Source: an uncultured Chlamydiae bacterium (GTDB lineage Bacteria; Chlamydiota; Chlamydiia; Chlamydiales; Parachlamydiaceae). Taken from it: a stretch of DNA of 64,000 nucleotides. Position 1 is the first letter of the stretch. Each line of letters starts with the position of its first letter. This document shows, one piece after another, positions 23,308 through 50,481 of the stretch. The stretch spans positions 320,001 through 384,000 of the forward strand of contig CAVWGN010000001.1 in the NCBI GenBank assembly GCA_963754655.1, in the 5' to 3' direction. The notes beneath the pieces are model-generated. The model was not told where the DNA came from and did no database searches. It saw only the letters and a list, made by a program, of their open reading frames with translations. A program made the translations under genes and the position numbers.

Positions 23308-23465
23308 TTTTCCTCGTTTTCTTCAACTTTTATCGTATCAATAAACTGAAGGATTAAATTTTCACTTTTAATTTGTTTTATAACTTTATAATAAACTATA
23401 ATATCGAAATTATCAATTATTATTTGAATTAATCTTTTTTGATTGAAAATAAATTTACGAAAACG

Positions 23466-24640: not shown

Positions 24641-24960
24641 ATCCTACAAGCATCTTGATGCGCTTCAACAATTGAGCTGTCTACAGAGTAATTTTCTTCG
24701 TCAATTTCATCTTTTAAAGCTTGCCAAATCGTTTGCCAGATTCCAGCCTTTGTCCATCGATTAAAGCGATTATAACATGTGCTCCAAGGACCATACTTGG
24801 GTGGTAGATCCCTCCAAGCGGCTCCTGTTCTTAAAATCCAAATAATGCCTTCTAAAATCTTACGATGAGGCCGACTTGGTCTGCCCCAATATCCTCGTTC
24901 TTTTGGCAATAAAGGTTTTATTTTTATCCATCTTTCATTAGTTAATACTATCCTACTCAT
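24574..24960 (-). CDS. IS5-family transposase OrfA (N-terminal part)
   Basis: WILRTGAAWRDLP..YGPWSTCYNRFNRW; VDSS; A9G slippery run at 24631-24640. Confidence 0.9.
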   Translation of the reverse strand: MSRIVLTNERWIKIKPLLPKERGYWGRPSRPHRKILEGIIWILRTGAAWRDLPPKYGPWSTCYNRFNRWTKAGIWQTIWQALKDEIDEENYSVDSSIVEAHQDACRIKKKPKKPWENQGPEQPQKFMQ

Positions 24961-33900: not shown

Positions 33901-36900
33901 ATTGCTGATTGTGATTTTGATTTTTAAAATCATGCATGTATTTTTCAAGCTGTTCTTTGAGATCGAGATCCATGAGATCCCCCAGAAAAATGACTGCTTG
34001 ATTCTTCACTTTATGAATAGCCTGCTCAATGACGTGTTTAAAATAGTTAAGTCCTGGAAAGCAATGAACCACGCTATTGAGAATCACACAGTCAAATGCC
34101 TCCTCTTCAATGTTTTGAATCTCATGCGCATAGACTTGAGCAAAATGTACATGAGGAAGTTTGTTCTTTGAAGCTTTCTGCCGATTTTTTGCAATGATGC
34201 GGGAAGAAAGATCGGTTCCTAAATAAAAACCTGTTAAAGGCGCGAGTCCAAAAAGAGTAATTCCTGATCCGCATCCAATTTCCAACACACGGCTACTGGT
34301 CGTCAAAAGAGGACGAAGCTTATTGACAATACTTTGCTTATATTCTTCCATCTCAAATTTAGAAAATGGAAGGCCGGTGTCGCTTTTAACCCAGCCGCTG
34401 GAGTGAATGTCATCTTCTCCTTCTTCTGCTACTTGGTCCCAAAGGCTTTCATTCATTAAAGTATGTTGGGATTGCTCTTGCAATCGTGCGGGATGTTCCA
34501 CATCCAGGCAAATATAAGCTTGCAAGCACTCATTCTCCCATTGCATTTTATTTAATGCAGATAAATGAGAGCTTTTTGAGACAACTAAACGAATGTTTCC
34601 CTGTTGAATAATGGATTGAGTTCTTTCTAAAGGAGCTTTAATGTCTAAGGGAACATAGGCTCCTCCTGCTTTCAAAATGCCTAGAATGCTAATAATGGAT
34701 TCAATGGAATTTTCCATATAAATCGCCACAAGTTCTTCTGGCAGTAAGGCCTTTTGATTCTTTAGAAAATGAGCCAGTTGATTGGCTCGCTGATTCAACT
34801 CTTCGTAGGAAACCGCTGTATGGCGATCTTTGATTGCAACTGCATGGGGACAAACTGCGACCTGATTTTCAAAAATGCGATGTAAAGGTTGACTCACTTC
34901 TAAAAGCTTTTTCTTAGAAGGAATCCATTCATGGACTAATTGATAAGCAGCAGGATCAATCGCTACATCTTTAATGCTCAAAGAAGGATTTCTCACAAGC
35001 GATTGGAGAAGACTTAAATAACTGCGAAAAAGAGTTTCAATCATTTGATCGCTATATATTTCTTGATAATACTCAATATAGCAATCCAGTCCATCCTCGC
35101 GTTTGACAAATTCAAACTCTAAATCCCATCGGCAATTATGATGAGGAAGCTCAATCCGAGAAGCAGTAAACTCTTTAAAAGATGCTTTAGATTCTGCATC
35201 GACATCAAACTGATGAAGGGCGACGTTAATATTGAAAAGAGGAGAACGACTTGTATCTCTTGGCAAATTTAGTCGATCAATCAACTGATCAAAGGGGTAA
35301 TCTTGATGTTCTAAAGAGTGTAGCACATCTTGCGCCGTCATCAGGAGAATATCTAAATAACTTTGTGTAGAATCGAGCTGATGGCGCAAAACAATGGTAT
35401 TAACAAAAAATCCAACGATTGATCTCAAATCATAGTGAGAGCGTCCAGCCACAGGTGAACCAACGATCAGATCTTTCTGTCCTGTATAACGGTAAATAAG
35501 AACGTAAATGGAAGCCACTAGACCCATAAATAATGTGGCTTGATGCTTTTGCGTTAATTGATTCAAATCCTTTAACACAGAAGCTGGAATTTTAAAAATA
35601 CGCCTTCCTCCCTTGAAGGTGAAGACAGTAGGCCGCTGATGATCTCCTGGAATTTCACAGATAGGCAAAGACCCTTTCAATTTTTGCATCCAATATTGCG
35701 CACTCTTCTCGATCTTTTCATTTTGCATAAGCTTTTGCTGCCACTGGCTATAATCGACATATTGAATGGCAAGAGGGGGAAGAGAAGTTTTTTTGCCTTC
35801 TTTGATGTGTTGATAAGATTTCAACAGATCATCAAAAAGAATTTTCAGAGAAGTTCCATCGGAAATCATATGATGCATCATGAGCAGGAAAATATGCTCC
35901 TGCTCGGATGTCTCAATCAAAAGAGCTTTAATTAAGGGTCCTTGAGAAAGATTGAAAACGCCTTGCTTGAAATCTTCAATCATTTGATCTTTTTCAGCCC
36001 CTGTCATTTGAAAAAGGGTGAGATCGAAAGTCTCAGGAGGAAGAATTTTCTGGTAAGGTTGTCCTTCTTGATCAATAAAAATTGTTCTAAGACTTTCATG
36101 ACGAATGATCAGGTGATCTAAAGCGCTTTGAAAGGCTTTTTTATCTAAATTGCCTTTCAAAGAGTAGCATTCCCATATATTATAGGCAGTAGGATGATCT
36201 TGCATCTGATGAAGAATCCACAGTCTTCTTTGGCCATAAGATAGGGGAATGAGCGTATTGCGATCGACTTTGGGAATCAAATCACAATCTTGAGTGTCTT
36301 TCCGACATAATAACTGGATTAAGTCGCAAATTCTTGGATGACTGAACAACTCTTGAAAGGAAAGGCGCTTATGAAAATGCTTATGGATTTCATTAATCAA
36401 TTGAACACCGAGAAGCGAATCACCACCTAATTCAAAAAAGTTGTCATTCTCTTGAATGTGGTCAATTCCCATCATTTTCTTAAAGATGCTTATGAGAATC
36501 TGCTGTGGATCTTCACCCATGATTTCTTGAGCAATCGCAGTAGAATGCTGATGAAATTCGCGATTTGCAAAAGCTGCATTTTCAATCCAAAAGCGATGTG
36601 GAGAAAAGACATAGTTAGGCAAAGGGACAACATGAACATTGAATGATTTAAAAAATAGCAGCCAGTCCACTTCTTGTCCTTTGAGATAATCCATGACAAG
36701 TGCTTGAGCAGGATAAAATTCTTTTACAGAGGGGTTGCTGTTGTCTTCTAGAATTCTTTTAAGTTTCTGATAAGCATCTTTCTTCGAATCACACATCAAT
36801 CCTATTCGGTTTGCATAATGATCTCGACGCACAGCAAGTGTGTAACAGATATCACCAATTGAAAGAGTCGTATTTTCCAAAAAAGCCAGATATCTTTTGG

Positions 36901-38398
36901 CTAGTTCCTTTAATCCCTTTTCAGTTTGACTAGAAAGAACAAAAGGCAAAGGTTCTGTCGAGGGCGAATCTTTTTCCTTTAATTCATCCCCTTCTTCAAG
37001 AACGAGGTGGCAATTTGTTCCATTAAAACCAAATGCGCTGACTGCTGCTCGTCTTGGATGAGTAGATGCCTCCCATGGAAGAGGATGATTGACAATATAA
37101 ACAGGGGTGGACGAGAAATCGATGAGTTCATTAGGCTCATTAAAATGCAAATTTGGAACCATTTCCTTATTTTTGATGGATAGCAGCGTTTTAATTAAAC
37201 TTGCTAATCCCGAAGCTCCTCCAGTCAAATGGCCGATATTTGTTTTAATTGAACCGAGACCGCAAAATTGCTTATCTTGCGTAAATGTCTCAAAAGCTTT
37301 TGTTATCGCTTGAATTTCAATGGGATCTCCGATCTTAGTCCCCGTGCCATGTGCTTCAAAATAGTCAATGGTACGTGGGTCGATCTTTGCTTTCTTCCAT
37401 ACATCCTTTAACAATGTTTCCTGAGCTAAGGGATTAGGGGCACCTACGCTTGAAGAGCGTCCATCATTATTGACGCCGCTCGCTAAAATCGTTGCGTAGA
37501 TGTAATCTTGATCGCGCTTTGCCTCTTCAAAACGTTTAAGGACTAGAGCGCCGCCTCCTTCTCCAATGACAATGCCATTTGCTTTGTTATCAAATGCGCG
37601 ACATTTTCCATCGCTAGAGGTGATGCCTAAGACATCAATGTGATCATCGATAAGAGCAAATGGAAATAAGCGAAGGTTGATTGCTCCCACTAAAGCCATT
37701 TGGCATTCTTTTAAAAGCAGGGATTGGCAAGCTTCATGGACTGCAACTAGAGCAGTGGAGCAAGTCGTGCTGACATTGACAGTAGGGCCATGTAAATCAT
37801 AAAAGTAGGAAATGCGAGAGGTGATAAAAGGGGTCACATTTCCAATGACAGCGGATGCGCTGACTTCTGGAATAATTTGGCGATACTCATTCATGACGTC
37901 GCCTAAAAAAACTCCTGTGTTCGTTCCTTGTAGCATGCGACGCGTATATCCTGCATCTTCAAAAGCTTCATGAGCCAATTCTAAAAAGATCCGCTGCTGT
38001 GGATCCATGACTTTAGCTTCGGCAGGCAGGATGCGAAAAAACTCGTGATCAAAAAGATCGATGCGCTCTAAAAATCCTCCTTCAGAATAACGTTTAGAAG
38101 CTTTAAATCGTTTTGAAGGAACAGAAGAGGCAAGCGGATCAATATCCTGGCGTCGACTTTCCGGAAAGGAAGTCACACAATCCACGCCTTTGTGAAGATT
38201 GTCCCAAAATTTCTCTTTTGTGGATGCCATAGGCATGCGGCACGAAATCCCAATAATGGCAATTTTCTGGGAAGAATCGACTTCCATTGGCTGGTGCTGA
38301 TGCAAGCGCTGATATTCTTCAATCAAAGCATGAGCCGTTTTTTGGTCAAACTGCTTGTCTTTATAAAGTTTCAATAGGTGTTTAATATACAGGTCCAT
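30971..38398 (-). CDS. Hybrid trans-AT PKS/NRPS: KS-ACP-C-A(MT-interrupted, Asn)-PCP-E
   Basis: KS (TTCSTAL, HGTGT, NIGH), no AT, ACP GGDSL, C HHMISDG, A with pocket code DLTKIGEVGK, MT VLEIGCGSG, PCP GGDSI, E domain (HHLLIDGVSW, EGHGRE, RTVGWLT). Confidence 0.93.
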   Translation of the reverse strand: MDLYIKHLLKLYKDKQFDQKTAHALIEEYQRLHQHQPMEVDSSQKIAIIGISCRMPMASTKEKFWDNLHKGVDCVTSFPESRRQDIDPLASSVPSKRFKASKRYSEGGFLERIDLFDHEFFRILPAEAKVMDPQQRIFLELAHEAFEDAGYTRRMLQGTNTGVFLGDVMNEYRQIIPEVSASAVIGNVTPFITSRISYFYDLHGPTVNVSTTCSTALVAVHEACQSLLLKECQMALVGAINLRLFPFALIDDHIDVLGITSSDGKCRAFDNKANGIVIGEGGGALVLKRFEEAKRDQDYIYATILASGVNNDGRSSSVGAPNPLAQETLLKDVWKKAKIDPRTIDYFEAHGTGTKIGDPIEIQAITKAFETFTQDKQFCGLGSIKTNIGHLTGGASGLASLIKTLLSIKNKEMVPNLHFNEPNELIDFSSTPVYIVNHPLPWEASTHPRRAAVSAFGFNGTNCHLVLEEGDELKEKDSPSTEPLPFVLSSQTEKGLKELAKRYLAFLENTTLSIGDICYTLAVRRDHYANRIGLMCDSKKDAYQKLKRILEDNSNPSVKEFYPAQALVMDYLKGQEVDWLLFFKSFNVHVVPLPNYVFSPHRFWIENAAFANREFHQHSTAIAQEIMGEDPQQILISIFKKMMGIDHIQENDNFFELGGDSLLGVQLINEIHKHFHKRLSFQELFSHPRICDLIQLLCRKDTQDCDLIPKVDRNTLIPLSYGQRRLWILHQMQDHPTAYNIWECYSLKGNLDKKAFQSALDHLIIRHESLRTIFIDQEGQPYQKILPPETFDLTLFQMTGAEKDQMIEDFKQGVFNLSQGPLIKALLIETSEQEHIFLLMMHHMISDGTSLKILFDDLLKSYQHIKEGKKTSLPPLAIQYVDYSQWQQKLMQNEKIEKSAQYWMQKLKGSLPICEIPGDHQRPTVFTFKGGRRIFKIPASVLKDLNQLTQKHQATLFMGLVASIYVLIYRYTGQKDLIVGSPVAGRSHYDLRSIVGFFVNTIVLRHQLDSTQSYLDILLMTAQDVLHSLEHQDYPFDQLIDRLNLPRDTSRSPLFNINVALHQFDVDAESKASFKEFTASRIELPHHNCRWDLEFEFVKREDGLDCYIEYYQEIYSDQMIETLFRSYLSLLQSLVRNPSLSIKDVAIDPAAYQLVHEWIPSKKKLLEVSQPLHRIFENQVAVCPHAVAIKDRHTAVSYEELNQRANQLAHFLKNQKALLPEELVAIYMENSIESIISILGILKAGGAYVPLDIKAPLERTQSIIQQGNIRLVVSKSSHLSALNKMQWENECLQAYICLDVEHPARLQEQSQHTLMNESLWDQVAEEGEDDIHSSGWVKSDTGLPFSKFEMEEYKQSIVNKLRPLLTTSSRVLEIGCGSGITLFGLAPLTGFYLGTDLSSRIIAKNRQKASKNKLPHVHFAQVYAHEIQNIEEEAFDCVILNSVVHCFPGLNYFKHVIEQAIHKVKNQAVIFLGDLMDLDLKEQLEKYMHDFKNQNHNQQYRTKTDWSVELFLSRRFLEDLQADFPMIVDVCISQKEHTIENELTQFRYDALLFIDKQSPVPRTAKKHKDQYGLCHLISSSKANLNLPISPTALAYVLFTSGSTGVPKGVMVEHGTVKNYIEWAIHYYFSDREGERPIFPFYSPLTFDLTVTSLFCPLFTGSYLRIYTGEFDEVLRNICQDQEINILKLTPTHLNMIIENGKPLSNIYKFIVGGEALYTAKVQELSELYDQPIQVYNEYGPTEATVGCIVYEWNSTLDEKYSQMPIGYPIRTVMIHLLDADQKPVPIGSIGEIYIGGECLARGYLNDSCLTQERFMRDPFHPGKMYRSGDLGRLLPTGILEYVGRTDRQVKIRGHRIELNEIEGYLSQHPAVQSAAVALKDIQARGKTLCAFYSLKKEISQKEIRDWLSHKLPAFMIPAYFVEVQTLPINSNGKINYQNLPHPLQQEQAQIAKPRTTEETFLHEAWCQVLGLSVESLGIFDDFFAVGGDSIIAMRILSKARQRNLCFTIKDIFQYRTIAALSQHVSTVSLEIKEKSQQEELFISPLTPIQKWFFQHQMPNPHYFNMAYLFRLPVHVNIELLEIVISKCLDDHVALRSLFEEKNGMIEQRIAQPFSFKLDIINLSSLTFEQQQQQILQITQKRQESFNLFTGPLFAAVIFQLNHQEQRLFIAVHHLLIDGVSWRYLVEDIELLYQHHLNPPPLLTTDSWVNYALTLHELKPQQLNIDYWLALQLKDHPSIAEKQRPCNQSQYYKEVSLHFDAEFTRQLMSVHQVFDTNVNDLLLTALFSSLKQQFKMSRLLLDLEGHGRENIPHVDVGRTVGWLTTLFPFSIEEAPSLMETLLSIRQHLRQIAPNDFHFGVAKYHHQHPQLQALAPEILFNYFGRVGSDLLQGSQSLLSNCRETFANLTDPRNPVPHLIEVNAIIMEDRLTLSICYDTHSFEEATMHEWQKHYLLAIKQIVHELESRTNHSLEAQHL

Positions 38399-38405
38399 AA
38401 ATGAC

Positions 38406-41400
38406 TTACCTTAAGAGCTGAGCTGCTTTGTCAAGATCGATGAGGCCACTGTCAATATCAATCAAAAGTTGCGAAATTGTATCTTTCTGATTCTCTCCAT
38501 ACAACTTCTTTTTGCAGTGATGACAAAATAAGTCCAGAGTTGAATGAGAATAAAGATCTGACACTTCCAATGGAATTTGCAGTTGTGTTTTAGCAAGATG
38601 AGTCAATTTCACCGCACTAATGGAGTCTCCGCCACTATCAAAGAAGTTATCTGAATCTGCAATGTGAGAATGTCCTAAGACATCCTTCCAAATTTGGATG
38701 AGGATGGCTTTGATCTCTTGAGGTGAAAGATCTGATTGTAAGGAATGAGAATGGATGATCTTTGGTTGAGAGTCAATTGAGTGACCCTTAAACTTCCTTA
38801 ATAACTCTTCCGAAAATCGAATTTTTATGAATGGCAAGACGAGATTCATCACATGGGAATCAAAATCTGCCACCACGGCAAAAGGAAGGGCGTAAGATAA
38901 AAAGAGATCCAAACACTCAATAAATTCTTCCTTGGTGATGGGAGGAATCATACTCATTCGATCTGAAAGAAGACTTCCATCATCAGCATCAATTAAAGTA
39001 TAATTCATTGTAATTGTCTTTCTTCCTTGTTTATTGCGAAAATCTCCATAGCTATCTAAAAAAAGATTTTGGGCGCAACAATCTGCTCCTGTTGGACCCC
39101 CCATCAAAGAAGAAATTGAAGAAAATGTTGCCATAAAATCGAGTGGATGATGAAGCGTCAATTGATCAAGTAGCCAAATGACTCTTAGCTTTGAAAGAAC
39201 ATTGTGTCTAAATATATCAAAGGAAACTTTTTCAATGACTGTATGGTTGACATTTTTGATCGCAACAAAAATGCCATGAATAGATCCCCACTGATTTTCA
39301 ATCTGTTGAATAAATCCGCTACATTCTTGCTGATCAGTAATATCCCCTGACAGGTAGAGGACTTCTGATCCAAGTTCCTGGAGGTGTTTGATGATTCGCA
39401 AAGGTTTGTCTGTTAGATGACTTTCTGGCTTTCTTCCGATTAGAGCTATTTTAACCTTGGCTTTTTTAGCTAATAATAGGGCTGTCTCCAAACCTAGATA
39501 GCCTCCTCCTCCTGCAATCAAATAGACACCTCCTTCTCTAATCATAAATGAAGGTGAGGGCAAATGGGAAATATCTAACGAATGAAGAATTTGAACATAC
39601 CGTTTTCCGTTGCGGTATCCAATAAAAGGATCTGAATAAGTGAGAGACTCAAAGATGTCTTGATAAAGATTTTGAGCCATTTGCTCGCTATAATTGTGGA
39701 TGTCAATATCGATGGCTAAGCTCTGAACTTGAGGAAATTCTTGGGAAATCACCTTGTTGATGCCAAGAGCCGCCATTCTGGTAGGATCTATAAATGGCTC
39801 TTGTCCATCAATGCTTTGGGCATAAGCGGTGATATTGATAAATTTTAATTCTTTTGATGTGAGTTGCTTTTGGCAAGCACGAATGAGATGAAAACAGCTA
39901 AAAGCACTTCTGTCTTGTGAATGGCTGATAGCCTCATAGCTTTCCATACTGCAAGAAGAGGGAAGGCAATCCCATAGATGAATCATCCCGGCTAACTTGT
40001 CTAATGAGAGCTGATGGAGAAGTTGGGAATAGTCTGAAGGAATATGAGGCCGAATAGTGAAGCTGCTCTGATTGACTTGTTCAAAGTGATCTCCTGCAAA
40101 AACTTGAATGACATTCATTCCTTTGGCTTTGCAAAAATCCGAAAATTTCTGATGTTCTGGAATAGCCTGCATCAAAAATAAAACAGAAAGCTGAGGATCG
40201 ATTAGTTCTACATTTCCCTCTTTATTTTTGCTTTCTTCTTTCCAATCAAGAGAGAAAAATAAATCTTGCAAACGGCTCTGCTTTTCTTGAGGGATTTCTA
40301 CCTCAAGTTTAGGCCAATGACGTTTGGCATTAAAAGCATAAACAGGAATTGCAACTTTTTGTTTGTTTTTTTCACCAAAGATTGTTGTCCAATTGACAGA
40401 TTGTCCATTGAAATAGGAGCTTATTTCATGAATCAGACTCTTTTTTAATAGCTGTTGCAATTCAGAAGGAGCGTGCCAAAGAGGGGCTGAGTCAGTGATC
40501 GTATGATAAAAGAGGCGATGCAGCGGATCATTTTGAAAGCGATCTTTCTCTTTGTGATTTAAGTAAGCGGTTATTTGCTGAACGAATTCCTGACATGTCT
40601 TACCCATCATGACAAGGCGATGAGAATAATGATTTCTACCAACAGCTGATGTATAAGCAATATGGGCTAACAGGTCATCGCTAACTGTTTGTAAATAGTG
40701 TGCGTATCTTTTTAAGAGCAAATGAAGAGCAGTAGGATCTTTTGCTGAAATAAACAAAAGATAAGGATCTTCAGAATAAATGTTAGGAATTTGCATGGGG
40801 TATTCTTCTAAAACTAAATGGCAATTGGTTCCGCTAATGCCAAAGGAACTAACACCTGCTAATAGGGGAGAAGCAGTGTGAAAGGATAATAATTGATGAT
40901 TTGGAAAGACTGGGGATTGATCAAAGTCGATAAAGGGATTAGGTTTATTAAAATGAATATTGGGAGGCAGTTGTCGATGCTTCAAACAAAGAATGGCTTT
41001 AATCAGTCCTGCAATTCCCGATGCAGCCTCAAGATGTCCAATATTTGTCTTCACAGCACCTAAAGGGCAAAAATTTGTCTTTTCTGTATATTTTCTAAAT
41101 GCGTAAGTTAAACCCGTGACTTCAATGGGATCGCCTAATTTTGTTCCTGTGCCATGCGTTTCAATAAAGCTTAGCTGTTCAGGATTAATTCTCGCTTTCT
41201 CCCATGCTTGGCAAATCACATCAGTTTGAGCTTCCGGATTTGGGGTTGTAATGCCATTGGAAGTCCCATCACTATTCACTGCGCTTCCTTTAATCATGGC
41301 ATGAATATAGTCTCCATCTCGTTCCGCCAAATCTCTTCTTTTAATGACAAGCGCGGCCACTCCATCTCCAATGTTCGTTCCATTCGCTTTTTCATCAAAC

Positions 41401-42179
41401 GTTTTGCATTTGCCATCAAATGCTTCAATTCCCAAATTGGCAATCTCCCGGAGAGCAGGAAAAAATCGGATATTCACTCCTCCAACAATCGCCTGTTCGC
41501 AATCCCCATCTTTTATGGCTTGACATGCTTGATGAACTGCAACAAGAGAAGCTGAACAAGATGTATCGATCAGCATGGTAGGTCCTTTTAAATCAAATAA
41601 ATAAGACAAACGATAAGCCAATAGGGCAGGTTGATTGCCTAGAGAAACTGAAGAATCATTTTTATCTAAAATATCGATATAATTATCTTCATTGACCGAA
41701 TAGCCGATATAAATCCCTGTTTTGCTTCCACGCAATTGACTTTCGGTCAAGCACGCATGATCGAGCGCTTCAATGGCCACTTCAAGGAAAAGACGTTGAG
41801 CGGGATCCATGACTCGCGCTTCAACAGGTGTTAAGCCAAAAAAAGTATGATCAAAGAGATCAATGCGATCTAAATAAGCTCCGGCTCGGCAATTCAGTCC
41901 CTTTGTCTGTTCAAAAATAGCCGAATTGACATATTTGATATCTTCCATTCGATTTTTGGGAAAAGCTGTCACCGCATCTTTTCGATTGAGAAGTTGAGTC
42001 CAAAATTCTTCTGGATTTTGAGAGCCTGGAAAGCGACAAGCCATCCCAATAATTGCCCATTCAATCACTTGTGCAGACGGGGCTGGTTGTCCAATCTGTT
42101 TTAAATAAGTATAAGCCTCTTCCGGGGTCAATTGTTTGCTTTGAACTTGCTCAATAATAAATTCTTGTAAACTTTTCAT
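38406..42179 (-). CDS. Trans-AT PKS module KS-KR-ACP
   Basis: KS (DTSCSASL, HGTGT, NIGHLE), no AT, KR GGGGYLG with Cys at the catalytic Tyr position (GADCCAQN), ACP GGDSI. Confidence 0.92.
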   Translation of the reverse strand: MKSLQEFIIEQVQSKQLTPEEAYTYLKQIGQPAPSAQVIEWAIIGMACRFPGSQNPEEFWTQLLNRKDAVTAFPKNRMEDIKYVNSAIFEQTKGLNCRAGAYLDRIDLFDHTFFGLTPVEARVMDPAQRLFLEVAIEALDHACLTESQLRGSKTGIYIGYSVNEDNYIDILDKNDSSVSLGNQPALLAYRLSYLFDLKGPTMLIDTSCSASLVAVHQACQAIKDGDCEQAIVGGVNIRFFPALREIANLGIEAFDGKCKTFDEKANGTNIGDGVAALVIKRRDLAERDGDYIHAMIKGSAVNSDGTSNGITTPNPEAQTDVICQAWEKARINPEQLSFIETHGTGTKLGDPIEVTGLTYAFRKYTEKTNFCPLGAVKTNIGHLEAASGIAGLIKAILCLKHRQLPPNIHFNKPNPFIDFDQSPVFPNHQLLSFHTASPLLAGVSSFGISGTNCHLVLEEYPMQIPNIYSEDPYLLFISAKDPTALHLLLKRYAHYLQTVSDDLLAHIAYTSAVGRNHYSHRLVMMGKTCQEFVQQITAYLNHKEKDRFQNDPLHRLFYHTITDSAPLWHAPSELQQLLKKSLIHEISSYFNGQSVNWTTIFGEKNKQKVAIPVYAFNAKRHWPKLEVEIPQEKQSRLQDLFFSLDWKEESKNKEGNVELIDPQLSVLFLMQAIPEHQKFSDFCKAKGMNVIQVFAGDHFEQVNQSSFTIRPHIPSDYSQLLHQLSLDKLAGMIHLWDCLPSSCSMESYEAISHSQDRSAFSCFHLIRACQKQLTSKELKFINITAYAQSIDGQEPFIDPTRMAALGINKVISQEFPQVQSLAIDIDIHNYSEQMAQNLYQDIFESLTYSDPFIGYRNGKRYVQILHSLDISHLPSPSFMIREGGVYLIAGGGGYLGLETALLLAKKAKVKIALIGRKPESHLTDKPLRIIKHLQELGSEVLYLSGDITDQQECSGFIQQIENQWGSIHGIFVAIKNVNHTVIEKVSFDIFRHNVLSKLRVIWLLDQLTLHHPLDFMATFSSISSLMGGPTGADCCAQNLFLDSYGDFRNKQGRKTITMNYTLIDADDGSLLSDRMSMIPPITKEEFIECLDLFLSYALPFAVVADFDSHVMNLVLPFIKIRFSEELLRKFKGHSIDSQPKIIHSHSLQSDLSPQEIKAILIQIWKDVLGHSHIADSDNFFDSGGDSISAVKLTHLAKTQLQIPLEVSDLYSHSTLDLFCHHCKKKLYGENQKDTISQLLIDIDSGLIDLDKAAQLLR

Positions 42180-42186
42180 ATCATTC

Positions 42187-45100
42187 TTAGTAAGTTAGAT
42201 TATTTTTAACTGTTTGAATATCAACAGCGCCTTCTGCTAGCTGTTGCAGTAGATTTAATGTTTTGTCAGAAGAAGGGGTTGTTCTCTCAACTGTATTTTG
42301 TTGTTTTTGCTTCAGCATCTCGATCATCTGGCCTTGTGCTTGACAGGTGTGATGAATAAAGAGATCAGCAATATTTATTTTCAAATTAAATTGATCTTGA
42401 AAGAGTTGATGAAGTTTAACGATTAACAAAGAATTTCCTCCTATTTCAAAAAAGCTATCGTGAAGCTGAATATGTGCGATAGGCAAAACGCTCTTCCAAA
42501 TCTGGAGAATTTGAATTTGGATTTCAGAATAAGTGTCATCTTGAAAAGAAGCGGGCTTTTTCCGATAAGTATTCAGTTGAAGATAAAGAGCAGGATAATT
42601 GATTTTCCCATTGGGGAGCCGAGGAAATTCCTCAATGAAAAGGAAAGCGTCGGGCATTAAATAAGGAGGAAGTTTTTTTCTGAGTTTTTCTTTAATGACA
42701 ATTCTCTTTTCATCGTAATGCTGGGTCATGGCTGCATGTGCAGGAATGATAAAAGCGGCAATTTCCGTTGAATTTTGGTTCATCTCTTGTCGGCAAATGA
42801 TCAGAGACTTGCCCACTTCTTCTAATTGATCAATGTTTGCTTGAATTTCCTCGGGCTCAATTCTAAAACCTCGTCTTTTAATCTGTCCATCCAGGCGGCC
42901 TAATAAGAAGAGAGTTCCATTTTTATCGTAGTAAGCCTTGTCTCCTGTTTTGTAGATTCTCTCTCCCGTTTCGGGATGAGAGAGAAACTTGGATTTGGTT
43001 AATTCAGGAAGATTAATATATTCTCGTGCAAGGCCTTCTCCTCCAATATAGAGTTCTCCGGCAACGCCAATAGGGACAACTTGCAAATAAGGATTTAAGA
43101 CAAAACAGCGCACGTTCTGAAGAGGTTTTCCAATTGGAATTGCCTGTTCAATATCTGTTTCAATCAAATGACATGCACAAGAAATTGAAGTTGCTTCTGT
43201 CGCTCCATAAGTATTGAGCAATTTAATTTGATGGCCAAAGTGACTTTTCCATTTCTGAAGTGTATATTTATTTAACCGCTCTCCACCGATGATCAAGAGT
43301 CTTAGGCTAGAGGGAAGAGAAAGATTTTTTTGAATCAAATAATCTGTAAAATCATGCCAATAAGAAGTAGGAAAATTCCATATGCTGATCTCATATTGAT
43401 GAGACATCTCAAGAATCTGATCAAAGGGTTCAACGAGAGCATTTCCTCTTAAGACAACTGTTCCACCAGCTAGAAGGCAGGGATAAATTTCTTCTGAGCT
43501 TGTATCCCAACTTATCGAGGCAAATTGTAAACAATGATCTTTCGAAGTCATTTCGAAGAGTGTTTTGGCTGCTAAAGCAAAATTAAGGAGAGAGTGATGT
43601 TCAACAGCCACTCCTTTGGGTTGACCGGTAGAGCCCGAAGTAAATAATAAATAGGCAAGTTGGTTTCTAAGATTGGAGATAGGAGAGAGTTTAACTGAGG
43701 ATTTTTCAGGAAGGTGAGCAGGATCGATAAGAGTGCCCTTAAAATAGGCGAAGCGATTAAGTAGAGTGGTTTGACAAATTAAAATATCAATCTTGGCTTC
43801 TTTAATGATCCATTCAATTCTTTCTTGAGGATAAGAAGGATCCAGGGGAACATAGGCACATCCGCATTGCATAATGGCTAAGAGAGTCGGGATCAGAAAA
43901 CGCGTTTTTTCCATTGCTAAACCGATGGCTTCTCCCTCTCTTCCTTTTACGAGAAGCAAGGCTTGCGCAATGGCTTGCGATGCCTCCAGGAGTTCTCGAT
44001 AGCTCATCTCCTTGCCTTCTGCAATAACGGCAATCGCATCTGGATGTTGCTGAGCTTGTTCTTTAATCAAATCAAAAACTGTTTCAACTGCCGGAAGTTC
44101 CACGTGCGTTTTGTTCCATTCTATCGTCATCATTTGCACGAGGCTTGGATGCATAAATTGTACAGCTTGAACCGGTTGATCAGAGAATCGAAGGACTTGC
44201 TTAATAAGGGTCATGTAATCTTCCGCGAATTGCTCAACAAGAAAAGTGGGTAGACGCTCTTCACGGTATTCAAATAGTAATGCAAGATGCTGGGATTTTT
44301 GGCGGACTTCTAATACTAGGTCATAAAGAACAGGATGATCAGATGGGTGGACAATCTCTACTGTTGCATTCGGGAAATGTGGAATCTCAACAGGAGCATT
44401 TTGCATGACAAACATCACTTGGAAAAGAGGATGAACGCCGTCTATTCGCTTCGGGTTAACGGCATTTAAAATTTCTTGAAAGGGCAGAGCTTCATTTTTA
44501 ATTCCCTTTTGCAGTCCTTCTTTGACTTGCTGCAAGACCTCCTCAAAAGTTGTATGGGGCGAAAATGTTGTCTTATTCACTAATGTATTGACGAAGAAAC
44601 CCAGAACATTTTGAAACTCAAAAGAAGCGCGATTGGCACTCGGATATCCAATCAGAATCGTCGATTGATCAGAATAGCGATGGAGTAAAGCGTGATAAAC
44701 TGCAAGGAGAAAACAAGCTAACGTACAATGAGATTTGTAAATAAAATGTTGGATTTCATCAAACAAAGATGTTTCAATCTTCATTTGAATATTTTTCCCT
44801 TTTTTATGATGAACTGCTTTGATGGGTTGGTGCTCATGTGAAATTGCCAAAATAGAACACTCATCCAAATGGCCTAAATCATTTTTCCAATTGACCTTCA
44901 ATTGCTGCCATTCTTCTGTTTGAGAAAATTGCTCTTGCCATAAAGAAAAATGAGAATAATCAGACTCTAAAGCAGGTAATGTCGCTTTTTTTCCGGCTAG
45001 ATGTCCTGCATATAGCGCAAAGAGTTCATTTGCAAATACTCCCATGGACCAGCCATCGCAGATCATGTGATGGAAATTAAAAATGATGACATGATCTTCA

Positions 45101-47427
45101 GAAGAAGAAAGGATGCCTACTCTCCATAAAGGTCCCTCGTTTAAAGAAAAAGGGATTTCAACGAGAGATTGATACATCTTGTTGAAAATTAATTCTTGAT
45201 TTTGACCTGAGCTCTCTTCAAGTATAATGGGAAGTGCTAAATGATCCTGAATGCATTGAACGAGAGAATCGTCTTTAAAAGAGAAGCACGTCTTTAGAAT
45301 TGAATGTCTATTGCTAAGTTCTTGAAGGGCTTGAATAAAAGCCATGCGGTCTAATGAACCTTTGAGCTTTAAAATAACTGGAATATGGTAATCGATGCGA
45401 GTGGGTTCGATCTGATGAGCCAGCCAAACTTCTCGTTGATTATAGGACATGGGAGCAGTTGTCAAGGAATTAGCGAAGGGAAAAGAAATAGAAGGCTCTT
45501 GTTTCCCACCCTTTGTGATTGCCAAAACATCTCTGACTGTTAAATCTTCAAAAAATGATTCAAAGGGAAGAGAAACTCCATATTGCCTTTTAAGCCAATT
45601 TTGCAATTGAACGGCCTTTATTGAATCCAAGCCATAATGAATCAACATCTCATGATCTTGGAGTTGTTGAGGCGCGATATTTAAGATTTTAGCTAAAGAA
45701 TCAAGGAAAGAAGCAGGTTTAGATGAATCCGTCACAAATCCCTCAATGGTACACGAAATAGTGGGAAGAGTATTCTCGAGAAACATTTGACGGCAAAGGT
45801 GATGTTGAATTTTGCCACTTGTTGTACGTGGAATTCCTCCAGGCTTTACTAAGATGATGGCATAGGGGTCGATTTGAAAAGATTGGCCAATCTCTTTCTT
45901 AGCAAATTTAAGAATGACAGAAAAGTCGGTTTCCTTGACTTTTTTGCGATCAAGTTCAAGAAGTACAACCAACTCTTCATTATTTTCAATTGATACGGAA
46001 AAAGCCGCTGCAGCACATCCTTTAAGTAATTCATTTTCACCAATGAGGCTATATTCAATATCATGCGGATAAAAGTTTTTGCCTCTAATAATGAGCATGT
46101 TTTTTAAACGGCCAGCTAGATAGAGTTCACCTTGATCTAATACACCTAAATCGCCTGTGCGTAGATAAGGGCCCTGCCTTTCTGCTGTATAAGCTTGAAA
46201 GACCTCAGATGTTTCTTGCGCAAGATTCCAATATCCTTGCGCAATAGAAGCACCCCCTAACCAAATTTCCCCTACTTCTCCTTCTTTTACTAAAGCTAAA
46301 GTTTGAGGATTGACAATTTTAATGTCGCAATCTTTTTGCGGAAATCCACAGCTTACAATGTCGAGGTTTCTATTTTCTGTCTCTAAGTGAAGCAAGCGGA
46401 TATTGGCTTTGCTGCCCACCTCGCCTCCCGTCACAAATAGAGTGGATTCAGCTAAGCCATAACAGGGATATGAACTAGAAGGTTGAAACCCACACACTTC
46501 AAATTTTTTAGCAAATGCAGTTAAGGTTTTAGCTCGAATGAATTCAGATCCATTAAAAGCAATTTTCCACGAGGAAAGATCTAAATCTTTTAAATTTTCA
46601 TCTCTGATCTGATTGAGGCATAGCTCATAGGCAAAATTTGGTCCTCCACTTGTTGTTCCACGATATTTTGAAATGGCTTGAAGCCAAAGAAAGGGATTTT
46701 GAAGAAAAGAAGCAGGAGCCATCAAAAAAGCAGAGACACCCAGATAAAGAGGCTGGAGAATATTACCGATAAGCCCCATATCATGGTAGAATGGGAGCCA
46801 TCCTATCACAATAGTTGACTCATCATGTTTAAAGGCGCTGGCAATTTGTTCTTCATTTCGCATCAAATTGCCATGTGTGATGATGACTCCTTTGGGTGTA
46901 GAAGTGGAGCCTGAAGTATATTGCAAAAAGGCAATCTGCTCTTCAGAAGGCGCCTTTAATGAGAGAACAGGATCTTGAAATGCCAATGCCTGGTCATAAT
47001 CAATCCAACTTGGATTTAATCTTTCTATCCATTTGGAATTTCTCAGCATGTGTGTGCGAATCTCTTTCGTTGTCAAAATATGCGAGGCTTTAGATTGTAA
47101 TAGAACGTTTTGAACTCGAGCAGATTGCCGTTTTCCTTGAGGCGGAGGAATGGGAACTGCAATAGCACCAGCATATAGACAACCCAAAAATGCAGAAATA
47201 AAGGAAGAATTCGAAGAGAAAAAAAGAACGACGGGCTGTTGGTGCAGTTGGAGAGCTTGTAAGTGAAAAGCAATGCAAGTTGCTTTTCGATGGAGGTCTT
47301 CAAAATCAAGAGTCTCTTCGATTTCACCTTCTTCATTTAAGAAACAAAAAGCAGCAGCGTTTGGGCGATCAATTGCCCATTCCGTGAGACAATGGACAAT
47401 CGTTTTAAATTGGCACTCTTTTTTCAT
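42187..47427 (-). CDS. Starter NRPS: FAAL-ACP-C-A-PCP
   Basis: FAAL (AFLQYTSGST, WLPFYHDMGLIG, CYGLAE), ACP GLDSI, C HHMICDG, A (FTSGSTG, YGATE), PCP GGNSL; probable ATG at 47427. Confidence 0.93.
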   Translation of the reverse strand: MKKECQFKTIVHCLTEWAIDRPNAAAFCFLNEEGEIEETLDFEDLHRKATCIAFHLQALQLHQQPVVLFFSSNSSFISAFLGCLYAGAIAVPIPPPQGKRQSARVQNVLLQSKASHILTTKEIRTHMLRNSKWIERLNPSWIDYDQALAFQDPVLSLKAPSEEQIAFLQYTSGSTSTPKGVIITHGNLMRNEEQIASAFKHDESTIVIGWLPFYHDMGLIGNILQPLYLGVSAFLMAPASFLQNPFLWLQAISKYRGTTSGGPNFAYELCLNQIRDENLKDLDLSSWKIAFNGSEFIRAKTLTAFAKKFEVCGFQPSSSYPCYGLAESTLFVTGGEVGSKANIRLLHLETENRNLDIVSCGFPQKDCDIKIVNPQTLALVKEGEVGEIWLGGASIAQGYWNLAQETSEVFQAYTAERQGPYLRTGDLGVLDQGELYLAGRLKNMLIIRGKNFYPHDIEYSLIGENELLKGCAAAAFSVSIENNEELVVLLELDRKKVKETDFSVILKFAKKEIGQSFQIDPYAIILVKPGGIPRTTSGKIQHHLCRQMFLENTLPTISCTIEGFVTDSSKPASFLDSLAKILNIAPQQLQDHEMLIHYGLDSIKAVQLQNWLKRQYGVSLPFESFFEDLTVRDVLAITKGGKQEPSISFPFANSLTTAPMSYNQREVWLAHQIEPTRIDYHIPVILKLKGSLDRMAFIQALQELSNRHSILKTCFSFKDDSLVQCIQDHLALPIILEESSGQNQELIFNKMYQSLVEIPFSLNEGPLWRVGILSSSEDHVIIFNFHHMICDGWSMGVFANELFALYAGHLAGKKATLPALESDYSHFSLWQEQFSQTEEWQQLKVNWKNDLGHLDECSILAISHEHQPIKAVHHKKGKNIQMKIETSLFDEIQHFIYKSHCTLACFLLAVYHALLHRYSDQSTILIGYPSANRASFEFQNVLGFFVNTLVNKTTFSPHTTFEEVLQQVKEGLQKGIKNEALPFQEILNAVNPKRIDGVHPLFQVMFVMQNAPVEIPHFPNATVEIVHPSDHPVLYDLVLEVRQKSQHLALLFEYREERLPTFLVEQFAEDYMTLIKQVLRFSDQPVQAVQFMHPSLVQMMTIEWNKTHVELPAVETVFDLIKEQAQQHPDAIAVIAEGKEMSYRELLEASQAIAQALLLVKGREGEAIGLAMEKTRFLIPTLLAIMQCGCAYVPLDPSYPQERIEWIIKEAKIDILICQTTLLNRFAYFKGTLIDPAHLPEKSSVKLSPISNLRNQLAYLLFTSGSTGQPKGVAVEHHSLLNFALAAKTLFEMTSKDHCLQFASISWDTSSEEIYPCLLAGGTVVLRGNALVEPFDQILEMSHQYEISIWNFPTSYWHDFTDYLIQKNLSLPSSLRLLIIGGERLNKYTLQKWKSHFGHQIKLLNTYGATEATSISCACHLIETDIEQAIPIGKPLQNVRCFVLNPYLQVVPIGVAGELYIGGEGLAREYINLPELTKSKFLSHPETGERIYKTGDKAYYDKNGTLFLLGRLDGQIKRRGFRIEPEEIQANIDQLEEVGKSLIICRQEMNQNSTEIAAFIIPAHAAMTQHYDEKRIVIKEKLRKKLPPYLMPDAFLFIEEFPRLPNGKINYPALYLQLNTYRKKPASFQDDTYSEIQIQILQIWKSVLPIAHIQLHDSFFEIGGNSLLIVKLHQLFQDQFNLKINIADLFIHHTCQAQGQMIEMLKQKQQNTVERTTPSSDKTLNLLQQLAEGAVDIQTVKNNLTY

Positions 47428-49276
47428 ATGGTTGTAGCTTTTTTTCAATTAACTTTAACATTTCATTTGGATGACGAATAAAAAAGTGATCGCCGCTCAT
47501 CTCATAAAAGGCAGTTGCTTGTTGACTAAATGTTTTCCATCCTTCGATATCTTCTCTTTTTACAGTTTGATCTTCACGACCTCCAAACAATAAAAAAGAA
47601 GAATTAAGAGGGGCTTGCACGGAGGGTTGATAGTGATCAAGGAGGCGAAAATCGGCTCTTAAAATAGGAAGGAAAAAGTCTTTGAAAACCTCTTCTTTCA
47701 AAATCATTTCTGGCGTTCCATTTAATTTTTCTACTCTTTCAATAAAATCTTGATCATCGAGCATTCCCATTTGTGATAGAGGCCCTAATCGATCTGGAGA
47801 GGGACAGGCAGATAGGCAAAGAACTGAGGGTTCTAAACGATATTTATTCTTAAATTGCTGAGCTAATTCATACGCGACTAGAGCTCCTAAACTATGGCCA
47901 AAAAAAGCAAATTGAGACGAGATTTTGCATTTGACTTGTTTTTCTAACTCATCTAGCAAGTGATCGAATTGTTGAAGGGGTGGAACGTGACTTAACACTC
48001 CTCTGCCAGGATATTCAACGGGAATCACTTCTATGAAAGGCGGCAAGGAGTGACTCCAGTCTTTAAAAAGATTCGCTGAACCTCCTGCATAAGGAAAACA
48101 AAACAAATGCATGACGTGAGAGTTTTGAATGAAATATTCAGCGATCTCTACAGAAGAATAGCCCTTTAAACGTAACACTTCTTTTAGAATGGCATTGACT
48201 TCTTCTAAAGAATCCCTTTTCAACTCATGCAGCTTTTTGAGTTCAGAATATAAAGATTGAATCCTTCGCTGTTGCTCGGGTTGAAAAACTGTTTTATTCT
48301 TTGTGGTGGCTATGACTGTCAACGCTTTGGAAGCTGAATGGGAAATAGAGTGTGTGGAAACAGGTTCAAACCAAGAAGAGGATAATTCTTTAAAATTAAA
48401 TTCCACTGCCTGGCAGTTGACAGTAGGGAAAGAGTCGTTGAAAAATCTTAGCAATGTTCTTTTAGGGCCTATTTCTAATACATGGTCGCAATCTTGTTGA
48501 ACAAAAAATTGCATGGTATCCAGCCATTTAACAGGAGAAATGATTTGGACGGAGAGCAATCTTTTCATTTCTTCTACGCTTTCATAGGGTTTGGCTGTCA
48601 CATTAGAAATCACAGGAATCTGTGGAAAATTAAAAGAGGTGTGTTTGAGTTCTGTTTCAAATAATGAAACTGTCTCTTTTAATAAAGGAGTATGAAAAGG
48701 AAGATTAAGCTTTAAAAGTTTGGTTTGAGCGCCTAGCTTGTTGAGTTCTTTGGCCATCTGCTCAACAGGAAAAGCTAAACCCGAGATGACAATTTGCCTC
48801 ATTGAATTGATATTAGAAATATAGACATTCTCAAATTTAGCCATAACTTCATTTAGTTGATTAAGGGAGATGTTTTCAACAGCGCACATCTCCGCTGATC
48901 CTTCTCTTAAATTTCCCGCCATCAACTTAGCACGACTCTGGACGAGTTTAAGTCCCTCAAAAAAATCTAAAGCGCTTGAACAGACAAGTGCAGAATATTC
49001 TCCTAAACTGTGACCAGCGAAAAAATGAGGAAGATAAGAAAATTGTTCTTGAAACACTCGATAGGCGATGACGCTCAAAGAAAAAATTGCTGGCTGAGCA
49101 AAAGTTGTGTTGTATAATTCACTGCCAACAAGATTGCGCCCAAGAAGATCAAACCCTACTCTTTCACTTGCTTCATCAAATAACTTTCGAGCCAACACAT
49201 AGTCTTCATACAAACGCACTCCCATTCCGGAATATTGAGACCCCTGGCCTGGAAAAACGACGGCAAATTTATTCAT
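47405..49276 (-). CDS. Fusion of a FabD-like trans-acyltransferase and a type II thioesterase
   Basis: AT: FPGQGSQ, GHSLGEY, PFHT, EIGP; TE: FCFPYAGGSA, GHSLG, LRADF, GDHFF. Confidence 0.92.
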   Translation of the reverse strand: MNKFAVVFPGQGSQYSGMGVRLYEDYVLARKLFDEASERVGFDLLGRNLVGSELYNTTFAQPAIFSLSVIAYRVFQEQFSYLPHFFAGHSLGEYSALVCSSALDFFEGLKLVQSRAKLMAGNLREGSAEMCAVENISLNQLNEVMAKFENVYISNINSMRQIVISGLAFPVEQMAKELNKLGAQTKLLKLNLPFHTPLLKETVSLFETELKHTSFNFPQIPVISNVTAKPYESVEEMKRLLSVQIISPVKWLDTMQFFVQQDCDHVLEIGPKRTLLRFFNDSFPTVNCQAVEFNFKELSSSWFEPVSTHSISHSASKALTVIATTKNKTVFQPEQQRRIQSLYSELKKLHELKRDSLEEVNAILKEVLRLKGYSSVEIAEYFIQNSHVMHLFCFPYAGGSANLFKDWSHSLPPFIEVIPVEYPGRGVLSHVPPLQQFDHLLDELEKQVKCKISSQFAFFGHSLGALVAYELAQQFKNKYRLEPSVLCLSACPSPDRLGPLSQMGMLDDQDFIERVEKLNGTPEMILKEEVFKDFFLPILRADFRLLDHYQPSVQAPLNSSFLLFGGREDQTVKREDIEGWKTFSQQATAFYEMSGDHFFIRHPNEMLKLIEKKLQPYEKRVPI

Positions 49277-49302
49277 CTATGCACTCAATTTAGGGATAGA
49301 GA

Positions 49303-50481
49303 TTAACAACAGCTTAGTTCATTTGAATAAGCAACCGCTAATGGATGATTGAGTGAAGCGGGATAGGTGTATTGCTCATTTTTAAAGTTTCTGAGTACAA
49401 CTTGATTTTCTGATAAATTGACAAGGTAATTGGGATTGAGTGGAATCTTGCCTCCGCCTCCTGGTGCATCCACAACAAATTGAGGAATTGCATACCCTGT
49501 TGTATGTCCTCTCATTTGCTCAATGAGTTCTATTCCTCTTTTCACATCAGTTCTAAAATGAGAACTTCCCGTAATCAAATCGCATTGATAAAGATAATAA
49601 GGACGTACTCCCATTTGAAGAAGGCGATGGGATAAGGAGATTAAAATCTCCGGCTGGTCATTAATGTCTTTTAATAAAACGGATTGATTCCCTAAGACAA
49701 CTTTAGAACAAAGCAGTCTTTCGCAAGCTTCTTTAAGTTCGATCGTGCATTCTTTGGGATGATTGACGTGAATACTCAACCATAAGGGCCCAAATGTTTT
49801 AAATATCTCGCATAATTCCGGCGTGATTCTTTGAGGCATAAAAACAGGAATTCTAGAACCTAAACGCACAAACTCGACATGATCAATTGCTTTTAAACGC
49901 TCGAGCAGTAATTTCAATTTTCTATCTGGCAAGAGTAGAGGATCTCCTCCACTAATCAAGACATCTCTAATCTCTTTATGGTCTTCAATATATTGAATCG
50001 CTTGATCGAACTTGGGGTGAAAATCATAGTTTTGTGCATTTGAAACTAGCCGGCTACGCGTACAATAGCGACAATAAGAACCGCAATGGCTTGTCACAAG
50101 AAATAAGACACGATCAGGATAACGATGAATAAGACCATCGACGGGTTGAGTTTTCTCTTCTCCTACGGGATCTAACAACTCTTCCTGAGAAACAATTGTT
50201 TCCTCTCTTCTTGGAATGACTTGTTTTCGTATTGGACAGTTGGGATCGTTTGCATCGATTAAATTAAAATAGTAAGGTGTCACTGCAACAAGCAGTTTTT
50301 GCTTGGCATAGCTAAAACCTTCTTCTTCACTCGCTGTCAACTTTAAATGCTGTTTAAAATCATTCGCACTTAAGAATCGTTTGCGGAGTTGCCAATGCCA
50401 ATCTTTCCAATCACTTTCTGCTATCTCACTCCATAAGCCTTGGCCTTTTAACCATTGATTCAAATGATCTCTGGGGTACAT
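49303..50481 (-). CDS. kamA: Lysine 2,3-aminomutase (radical SAM/PLP)
   Basis: WKDWHWQL, HRYPDRVL, CGSYCRYC, YQCD and VDAPGGGGKIP motifs. Confidence 0.9.
   Translation of the reverse strand: MYPRDHLNQWLKGQGLWSEIAESDWKDWHWQLRKRFLSANDFKQHLKLTASEEEGFSYAKQKLLVAVTPYYFNLIDANDPNCPIRKQVIPRREETIVSQEELLDPVGEEKTQPVDGLIHRYPDRVLFLVTSHCGSYCRYCTRSRLVSNAQNYDFHPKFDQAIQYIEDHKEIRDVLISGGDPLLLPDRKLKLLLERLKAIDHVEFVRLGSRIPVFMPQRITPELCEIFKTFGPLWLSIHVNHPKECTIELKEACERLLCSKVVLGNQSVLLKDINDQPEILISLSHRLLQMGVRPYYLYQCDLITGSSHFRTDVKRGIELIEQMRGHTTGYAIPQFVVDAPGGGGKIPLNPNYLVNLSENQVVLRNFKNEQYTYPASLNHPLAVAYSNELSCC

Follow-up and report, generated by a model that had tools for sequence, protein, structure and literature searches.

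How does a nonribosomal assembly line in a chlamydial bacterium begin its product when the first gene of its operon encodes a lysine 2,3-aminomutase? The question is raised by a 64,000-nucleotide stretch of DNA (the window; contig C1, positions 320001–384000) from an uncultured member of the Parachlamydiaceae, whose genome (G000) is assembled into 3.16 Mb in two contigs with ~39% G+C. The nearest relatives of the window proteins are from Chlamydiota and Verrucomicrobia. Eight minus-strand genes (26136–50481) form a tight operon, in which the gene for the KamA-type aminomutase is transcribed first and the gene for an N-terminal nucleophile (Ntn) hydrolase acylase is transcribed last. The intergenic gaps from KamA to the acylase are 26, -44, 7, 7, -4, -37, and 4 nt. 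Scans for promoters and terminators gave matches at chance level only.

Based on sequence comparisons, the operon probably encodes a trans-acyltransferase (trans-AT) polyketide synthase-nonribosomal peptide synthetase (PKS-NRPS) assembly line that is primed with N-acylated beta-lysine or a close derivative, and a probability of about 0.6 is assigned to this reading. The choice of beta-lysine rests on the conserved linkage of KamA to the NRPS and not on the pocket of its adenylation domain, A1. Beta-lysine is the most economical choice because the cluster features one aminomutase and one lysine-type A domain, which would allow direct supply of one by the other.

The aminomutase

The first gene (49303–50481, minus strand) encodes a KamA-type lysine 2,3-aminomutase (P0001, 392 aa). 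Domains were assigned here and throughout by Pfam and NCBIfam profile matches, and P0001 features the Pfam domains Radical_SAM and LAM_C. It matches the chain of Clostridium subterminale lysine 2,3-aminomutase (LAM), 2A5H, with an E value of 4.9e-124 and is ungapped over residues 16–379 (364 residues). The radical-SAM CxxxCxxC motif is present in CGSYCRYC (133–140), where C133, C137, and C140 align with C125, C129, and C132 of 2A5H. D301 in YQCD (298–301), and D338 and K345 in VVDAPGGGGK (336–345), align with D293, D330, and K337 of 2A5H, of which we take D293 and D330 to hold the epsilon-ammonium of lysine and K337 to be the lysine that binds pyridoxal phosphate (PLP). An earlier reading of this DNA, made from its letters without database searches (the sequence-only reading), had claimed that the aminomutase keeps both acidic residues, and the alignment bears this out.

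The NCBIfam models rank the lysine enzyme first, with 456.3 bits for AblA (TIGR03820), 420 for Glu, 392 for Arg, and 260 for EpmB (TIGR03821), which ranks last among the five named aminomutase models. For the KamA subfamily model TIGR00238, P0001 scores 347 bits, above the cut-off of 199. The AblA score lies below its equivalog cut-off of 525.4, which counts against the lysine assignment, and the equivalog cut-offs of the Glu, Arg, and EpmB models (369 for EpmB) are likewise unreached.

The small distance of the Glu and Arg scores from the Lys score, with none at its own cut-off, would suit an aminomutase that acts on arginine, ornithine, or glutamate, with A1 loading the resulting beta-amino acid. 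Such a substrate is very improbable, since P0001 retains both of the aspartates that contact the epsilon-ammonium of lysine in 2A5H and the ungapped match is to a biochemically defined LAM. BlsG-type enzymes, represented by the blsG gene from a blasticidin-type cluster in Kitasatospora and by two relatives, feature a Thr at position 330 and a 2-residue gap at the second Asp site, where P0001 reads VVDAPGGGGK, and they form a separate clade. P0001 thus lacks the BlsG-type active-site segment, with Asp in place of Thr at 330 and no loop deletion, and it falls outside the BlsG clade.

A quick IQ-TREE analysis of 44 rows, in which 25 of 75 Opitutales rows were kept and duplicates and loci lacking KamA were dropped, placed the EpmB-like rows as an outgroup (SH-aLRT 97) and the BlsG rows in a clade of their own (99); the tree contained no glutamate aminomutase reference. 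The window KamA falls in a clade of the Planctomycetes-Verrucomicrobia-Chlamydiae (PVC) group (100), and this clade sits on the same side of the tree as AblA from Bacillus, Peptoclostridium, and Fusobacterium. KamA phylogeny had been proposed by the sequence-only reading as a check, and it came out in favor of that reading, with the window KamA grouped with neither the EpmB-like nor the BlsG rows.

The genome features a second KamA-family gene that is 34% identical to P0001, and the best model for this gene is EpmB (321 bits, 263-aa piece). Among 41 related genomes, 39 match the lysine model, and all but G000, G021, and G024 have only a weak type of EpmB grade; a strong KamA is not found in three genomes of the same genus. 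EpmB was rejected as an identity for P0001 by the low EpmB score, the tree position, and the separate EpmB-like paralog. P0001 is best read as a lysine-type 2,3-aminomutase (KamA/AblA) rather than EpmB because of the NCBIfam ranking, the tree position, the kept Asp residues, and the separate EpmB-like paralog.

KamA and the NRPS in other genomes

Orthologs of the fatty acyl-AMP ligase (FAAL)-NRPS and of the ketosynthase-ketoreductase (KS-KR) protein are found directly downstream of KamA in five of the 80 loci with its nearest relatives (L003, L004, L005, L006, and L009). These five loci are from one Verrucomicrobia metagenome-assembled genome (MAG), three chlamydial MAGs, and one unclassified MAG. 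A metagenome scan seeded with the pocket peptides WDT[SA]SEEI and W[ND][LF]P[TS]SYW gave five loci including two identical pairs, and the pairs provide two distinct clusters, L091 (=L092) and L093 (=L094), that share the KamA-NRPS-PKS synteny with a gene order of orphan protein, KamA, thioesterase (TE), NRPS, PKS, and PKS-NRPS. In another genome, G248, a contig break separates KamA from the NRPS, and the two are otherwise adjacent. In total, the synteny is found in 8 further distinct loci of Chlamydiota, Verrucomicrobia, or metagenomes, and the loci that carry it span 30–47% G+C.

In a sample of 400 genomes of the phylum, KamA (E<=1e-90) is found in 9 and an A1 ortholog in 5, in a screen that scored three A1 candidates per genome and so may miss weak matches. 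KamA is present in all five genomes with an A1 ortholog (45–48% identity, or G000 itself) and in 4 of the 395 others. The A domains of the orthologs are only 44–48% identical to A1, yet every ortholog checked features the pocket DTE[N/D]IGTSIK, in which N/D at position 278 is the only variation, and Trp234 is present wherever position 234 was read. These readings are limited in G248, in which the code is unread, in L009, which stops before the A10 lysine, and in L004, in which the gene is fragmented. The KamA and A1 trees have their two best-supported groupings in common, the window with L003, and L005/L009/L006/L091. The pairing of KamA with the A domain, which the sequence-only reading had pointed out in the window, is kept across the 8 further loci and, as judged from these sequences, is more than chance.

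Two observations on KamA itself tell against beta-lysine priming. G329 carries a KamA of 60% identity with no NRPS nearby. The KamA of G021 nests among the cluster-linked KamAs but adjoins ATP-grasp ligases and a GCN5-related N-acetyltransferase (GNAT). The presence of KamA alone does not name its client enzyme because this KamA clade also serves other pathways, as in G021.

The remaining 75 of the 80 loci, which are mostly from Opitutales, are without an NRPS alongside KamA, and this would suit a housekeeping or osmolyte gene that merely neighbors the cluster. No sign of a pathway was seen in the genes around KamA in Opitutales or G329. This explanation is hardly credible given the same-strand gap of only 26 nt between KamA and the next gene, the synteny kept across loci of widely different G+C, the absence of the KamA cluster from genomes of the same genus, the lack of an AblB-like acetyltransferase in the operon (Pfam scan), and the separate EpmB-like gene that covers the elongation factor P (EF-P) role.

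Two genomes from the same family as the source genome feature KamA with two D-Ala-D-Ala-ligase-like ATP-grasp genes and a GNAT gene, at L085 (G021, contig C3, 10511–14464) and L083 (G024, contig C7, 9788–13065). In G024, a single frame of 765 aa encodes KamA and an ATP-grasp domain as a fusion. No A domain lies close to the plasmid-borne KamA relatives of Embleya, Sinorhizobium, Thioflavicoccus, and Leptospira.

The A1 pocket

The NRPS P0002 (42187–47448, minus strand; 1753 aa from an uncertain TTG start) is a lipo-initiation module in which FAAL and an acyl carrier protein (ACP) are followed by a condensation (C) domain, A1, and a peptidyl carrier protein (PCP), as assigned with Pfam and NCBIfam. 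The A1 domain comprises residues 1120–1640 (42529–44091, minus strand) as located by motif positions, with the pocket DTENIGTSIK and Trp234. The motifs WDTSSE, IWNFP, LIIGG, and NTYGATEATSI start at 1314, 1356, 1385, and 1412, and the A10 GK is located at 1614–1615. The code was read with the A4, A5, and A10 core motifs as anchors, with GrsA numbering set by these motifs and not computed against 1AMU, and consists of D1315, T1316, E1319, N1358, I1386, G1388, T1413, S1421, I1422, and K1615. The open reading frames and motifs of the sequence-only reading are at the positions given, and its pocket string was reproduced; the codon of K517 is at nt 42604–42606, slightly outside the coordinate range of that reading.

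A1 features the cationic pattern of Asp235 (D1315) with an acidic residue at position 239 (E1319), as the sequence-only reading had noted for codes of basic amino acids. This pattern is found in 198 of 1286 background A domains, a set that consists of domains from 268 large NRPSs plus the window's own and was chosen by similarity to A1. The sequence evidence thus supports a cationic (Lys/Orn/Arg) type of pocket. A1 is the sole Lys-type A domain in the cluster; the code of the second A domain, A2, was derived by hand as DLTKIGEVGK, which looks Asp/Asn-like.

There are discrepancies between the pocket and a beta-lysine assignment, and these also weigh against the preferred reading. ScoA, with the code DTEDVGTVVK, is described in the relevant passages of bioRxiv 10.1101/121228 as having a strong preference for L-Lys in ATP-pyrophosphate exchange, and A1 matches this alpha-Lys code at 6 of 10 positions. 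The epsilon-poly-beta-lysine synthetase code, DGESISVVNK, is given in PMC10522769; it is the only beta-Lys code that was verified in print, and A1 shares just 4 of its 10 residues. DTEDIGSVVK also occurs without KamA, in the remaining metagenome locus (L095), whose 14.7 kb of sequence contain no KamA. This locus encodes a multi-module NRPS of the ordinary kind with the codes DAEDIGSVVK, DTEDIGSVVK, and DVEDIGAIEK and with Phe at 234. As read from sequence, the A1 pocket alone cannot separate beta-lysine from ordinary lysine, and DTExxGT is not a beta-lysine signature. Of the beta-lysine selector pocket proposed by the sequence-only reading, the cationic type stands, while the claim that the pocket itself marks beta-Lys is not supported, given ScoA, L095, and DGESISVVNK. 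The resemblance to VioO/CmnO on which that claim drew is unconfirmed, as their code was not found by full-text literature searches or in the PMC3630128 supplement.

These comparisons lead to an alternative in which A1 loads ordinary L-lysine, like ScoA, and the beta-lysine from KamA enters elsewhere, for example as the releasing amine at the terminal C domain. This alternative is supported by the ScoA pocket and by the final protein, in which a complete C domain that keeps its HHxxxDG motif takes the C-terminal place and a TE is lacking, so that release needs a nucleophile. It is also consistent with the KamA of the cluster-linked clade that feeds non-NRPS ligases in G021. It is nevertheless unlikely: the KamA-linked A domains are set apart from Lys-type domains without KamA by Ser-Ile at positions 330/331, in place of VV, and by Trp at 234, and the cluster has no second Lys-type loading enzyme, which leaves direct supply of A1 by KamA as the simplest arrangement.

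Tryptophan 234

In the background set of 1286 A domains, position 234 is Phe in 1145 and Trp in 16, with 89 unaligned. Only two of the 198 domains with an acidic 239 feature Trp234, window A1 and a Myxococcus module with the code DTENVGTAVK. The Myxococcus module is located at residues 1888–2392 of P0206 (WP_174488708.1) from Myxococcus sp. CA040A, and its code is close to that of A1. An independent link between Trp234 and an aminomutase is found on a megaplasmid of Xenorhabdus bovienii, where one PKS cluster encodes a BlsG-like aminomutase and, ~12 kb further downstream, an A domain that features Trp234-Asp235...Glu239. This locus (L090; NZ_FO818638.1, 14980–29152) encodes the BlsG-like aminomutase, an aminotransferase, a TauD-type dioxygenase, a type I PKS, and the A-domain protein of 1890 aa, and it is possible that the cluster makes a beta-arginine-primed polyketide.

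The Trp234 argument draws on two linked lineages and on a background set selected by similarity to A1, and this detracts from its value for beta-lysine priming. Trp234 is a lead, not a rule, for the selection of beta-amino basic acids. Trp234 together with Asp235 and Glu239 may mark A domains for beta-amino basic acids made by KamA or BlsG. If this marker holds, chlamydiae, Verrucomicrobia, and perhaps Rickettsiales symbionts would share an Ntn-acylase-matured polyketide-peptide primed with acyl-beta-lysine, a class with no described member. Taken jointly, these two proposals are tentative and we regard them as doubtful.

Assembly line and proposed pathway

The second gene of the operon (47405–49276, minus strand) encodes a FabD-like acyltransferase (AT) fused to a type II TE (P0003, 623 aa; Pfam Acyl_transf_1 at 7–283 and Thioesterase at 390–613). 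P0003 matches TIGR00128 fabD with 256 bits and features GHSLG at 88 and 460. In L005, L006, L009, L091, and L093 the gene at the place of P0003 matches the TE half only, so that the AT must be elsewhere in those loci. P0002, which follows, has two AMP-binding and two PP-binding Pfam matches, FAAL-type NCBIfam matches at residues 15–560, and Condensation at 663–1101 with HHMICDG at 793. The next gene (38406–42179, minus strand) encodes an AT-less KS-KR-ACP PKS module of 1257 aa with Pfam ketoacyl-synt, Ketoacyl-synt_C, KR, and PP-binding matches and the motifs DTSCSAS, HGTGT, and NIGH. A KS-ACP-C-A2-PCP-C hybrid of 2475 aa (30971–38398, minus strand; Pfam) follows, with a methyltransferase insert in A2. 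Both KS proteins keep the Cys-His-His residues and are without an Acyl_transf_1 match, while a discrete AT is located in P0003, which is the organization of a trans-AT PKS-NRPS.

The methyltransferase insert of the hybrid protein is located at residues 1368–1490, ahead of the A3 motif at 1600; the more common insertion site is A8–A9, whereas this insert is upstream of A3. The C-terminal 446 aa form a complete Condensation domain with HHLLIDG in place of a TE. The remaining genes, all on the minus strand, encode a stand-alone class I S-adenosylmethionine (SAM) methyltransferase of 352 aa (29916–30974; Pfam Methyltransf_25/11), an orphan protein (28501–29952), and the Ntn-hydrolase acylase (26136–28496; Penicil_amidase, Pfam PF01804, E 1.4e-148). 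The acylase matches the PvdQ model very weakly, with 31.8 bits against a cut-off of 950.

In the proposed pathway, KamA would convert free L-lysine to (3S)-beta-lysine, which A1 would adenylate, with Asp235 directed to the amino group and Glu239 to the terminal ammonium, and load onto PCP1. A fatty acid would be loaded by the FAAL-ACP and joined to one of the two lysine amines by the starter-type C domain. The two KS modules would extend the chain with malonate supplied by the fused AT, the first with ketoreduction, and A2 would add an Asp/Asn-like residue, which would then be methylated, before the product is released at the terminal C domain. By analogy to PvdQ in pyoverdine maturation, the fatty acyl group may then be stripped by the Ntn acylase, and hydroxylation of the lysine unit, or of some other residue, may be the task of the orphan oxygenase-like protein. 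We infer the steps after loading (N-acylation, malonate extensions, the methylated residue, release, and deacylation) from the order of the domains only. The proposal of the sequence-only reading that N-acylated beta-Lys is extended by polyketide modules fits this domain order; its choice of beta-Lys is the part that the pocket does not prove.

The orphan protein, a predicted tandem DSBH

The orphan protein (P0124/P0127; 472–483 aa) has no Pfam or NCBIfam match, and 14 homologs were found at E<=1e-5 among 8000 candidates scored from a database of 5.8 billion proteins. One of these homologs (P0131, partial) is named from 'Candidatus Megaera venefica', which we take to be a Rickettsiales symbiont, and the cluster, whole or in part, may extend beyond the PVC group. 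A search of the ESM Atlas gave no score of 0.9 or above. An AlphaFold2 (AF2) model from 17 sequences has a predicted local distance difference test (pLDDT) score of 84.8 and a predicted template modeling (pTM) score of 0.88. Foldseek with this model places Tpa1 and OGFOD1 at the top of the list, and all 50 matches listed by VIA-align are titled 2-oxoglutarate (2OG) oxygenase or double-stranded beta-helix (DSBH), with Z up to 10.3. The VIA matches cover either the C-terminal half (about 280–472) or the N-terminal half (about 20–270), and the homolog alignment features invariant H-x-D, H, and R-x-S columns in the N-terminal half. On the strength of the predicted structure, the protein is read as a tandem-DSBH, 2OG/Fe(II)-oxygenase-like protein. 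In at least four other clusters (L005, L006, L091, and L093), its gene adjoins KamA or lies a short way upstream of it.

Distribution and flanking genes

The cluster is patchy, being found in five of the 400 sampled genomes of the phylum, and the operon is absent from three genomes of the same genus. An Sfp-type phosphopantetheinyl transferase (PPTase) is encoded at the flank (23439–24194, plus strand; Pfam ACPS and AASDHPPT_N). An IS4/IS5-family transposase in two overlapping open reading frames (24209–24960, minus strand; Pfam DDE_Tnp_1 and DUF4096) sits between the PPTase and the operon, at the low-coordinate end beyond the acylase gene. Given its patchiness and the insertion sequence (IS) element at its flank, the cluster may be a trait that is exchanged among symbionts of protists. 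Its absence from genomes of the same genus fits gain by transfer, though its G+C is not deviant.

Significance

A few antibiotics of actinomycetes are known to contain beta-lysine, which is attached by free-standing enzymes. We know of no characterized nonribosomal product from the obligate intracellular chlamydiae and their Verrucomicrobia relatives. The supply of a dedicated A domain by an aminomutase is established logic; what is new here is the in-line lipo-initiation module, the trans-AT PKS extension, and the host groups. A term search of a survey of chlamydial gene clusters (PMC9666466) gave no mention of aminomutase or lysine, and open-literature searches of limited coverage returned no description of a KamA-headed chlamydial NRPS-PKS operon. 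If A1 truly selects beta-lysine, its invariant pocket and Trp234 would provide a testable genome-mining rule for beta-lysine, which is not told apart from lysine by the standard code.

Comparison with known systems

P0001 has the radical-SAM motif, the PLP lysine, both Asp residues, and the side of the tree in common with C. subterminale KamA (2A5H) and the AblA proteins of Bacillus and Peptoclostridium. It is shorter than 2A5H (392 aa compared to a 416-residue chain) and scores below the AblA equivalog cut-off. The named KamA/AblA references adjoin ablB acetyltransferase genes, whereas P0001 heads an NRPS-PKS operon.

In Streptoalloteichus hindustanus, a lysine 2,3-aminomutase gene adjoins the epsilon-poly-beta-lysine synthetase gene, according to PMC10522769. 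That system is like the operon in placing KamA beside an A-domain enzyme, one that uses beta-lysine, but the enzyme is a membrane-bound homopolymer synthetase. In the ScoA/MmaA/Rv0101 isonitrile lipopeptide pathways, an acyl-AMP ligase and an ACP feed a C-A-PCP protein, the acyl chain is joined to the lysine amines, and the Lys-type pockets are DTEDVGTVVK and DIEDVGSVVK, as reported in passages of bioRxiv 10.1101/121228. The operon shares with these systems, as described there, a fatty acyl-AMP ligase and ACP that lead to C-A-PCP with a Lys-type pocket. The ScoA-type systems differ in that they use alpha-L-lysine and reductive release and have no PKS modules, and the passages concerned name no aminomutase. 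Pyoverdine biosynthesis likewise features a fatty acyl-AMP-ligase-type start and an acylase of the Penicil_amidase family, PvdQ, and this analogy is functional only.

In viomycin, capreomycin, and streptothricin biosynthesis, a cluster-encoded aminomutase supplies beta-lysine to a dedicated A domain (VioP/VioO/VioM and relatives). CmnO and VioO are free-standing A-PCP didomain proteins that need MbtH-like partners (PMC10510592). The beta-Lys enzymes of the viomycin type decorate a finished peptide, whereas A1 sits in-line in the C-A-PCP part of a lipo-initiation module that precedes the PKS modules.

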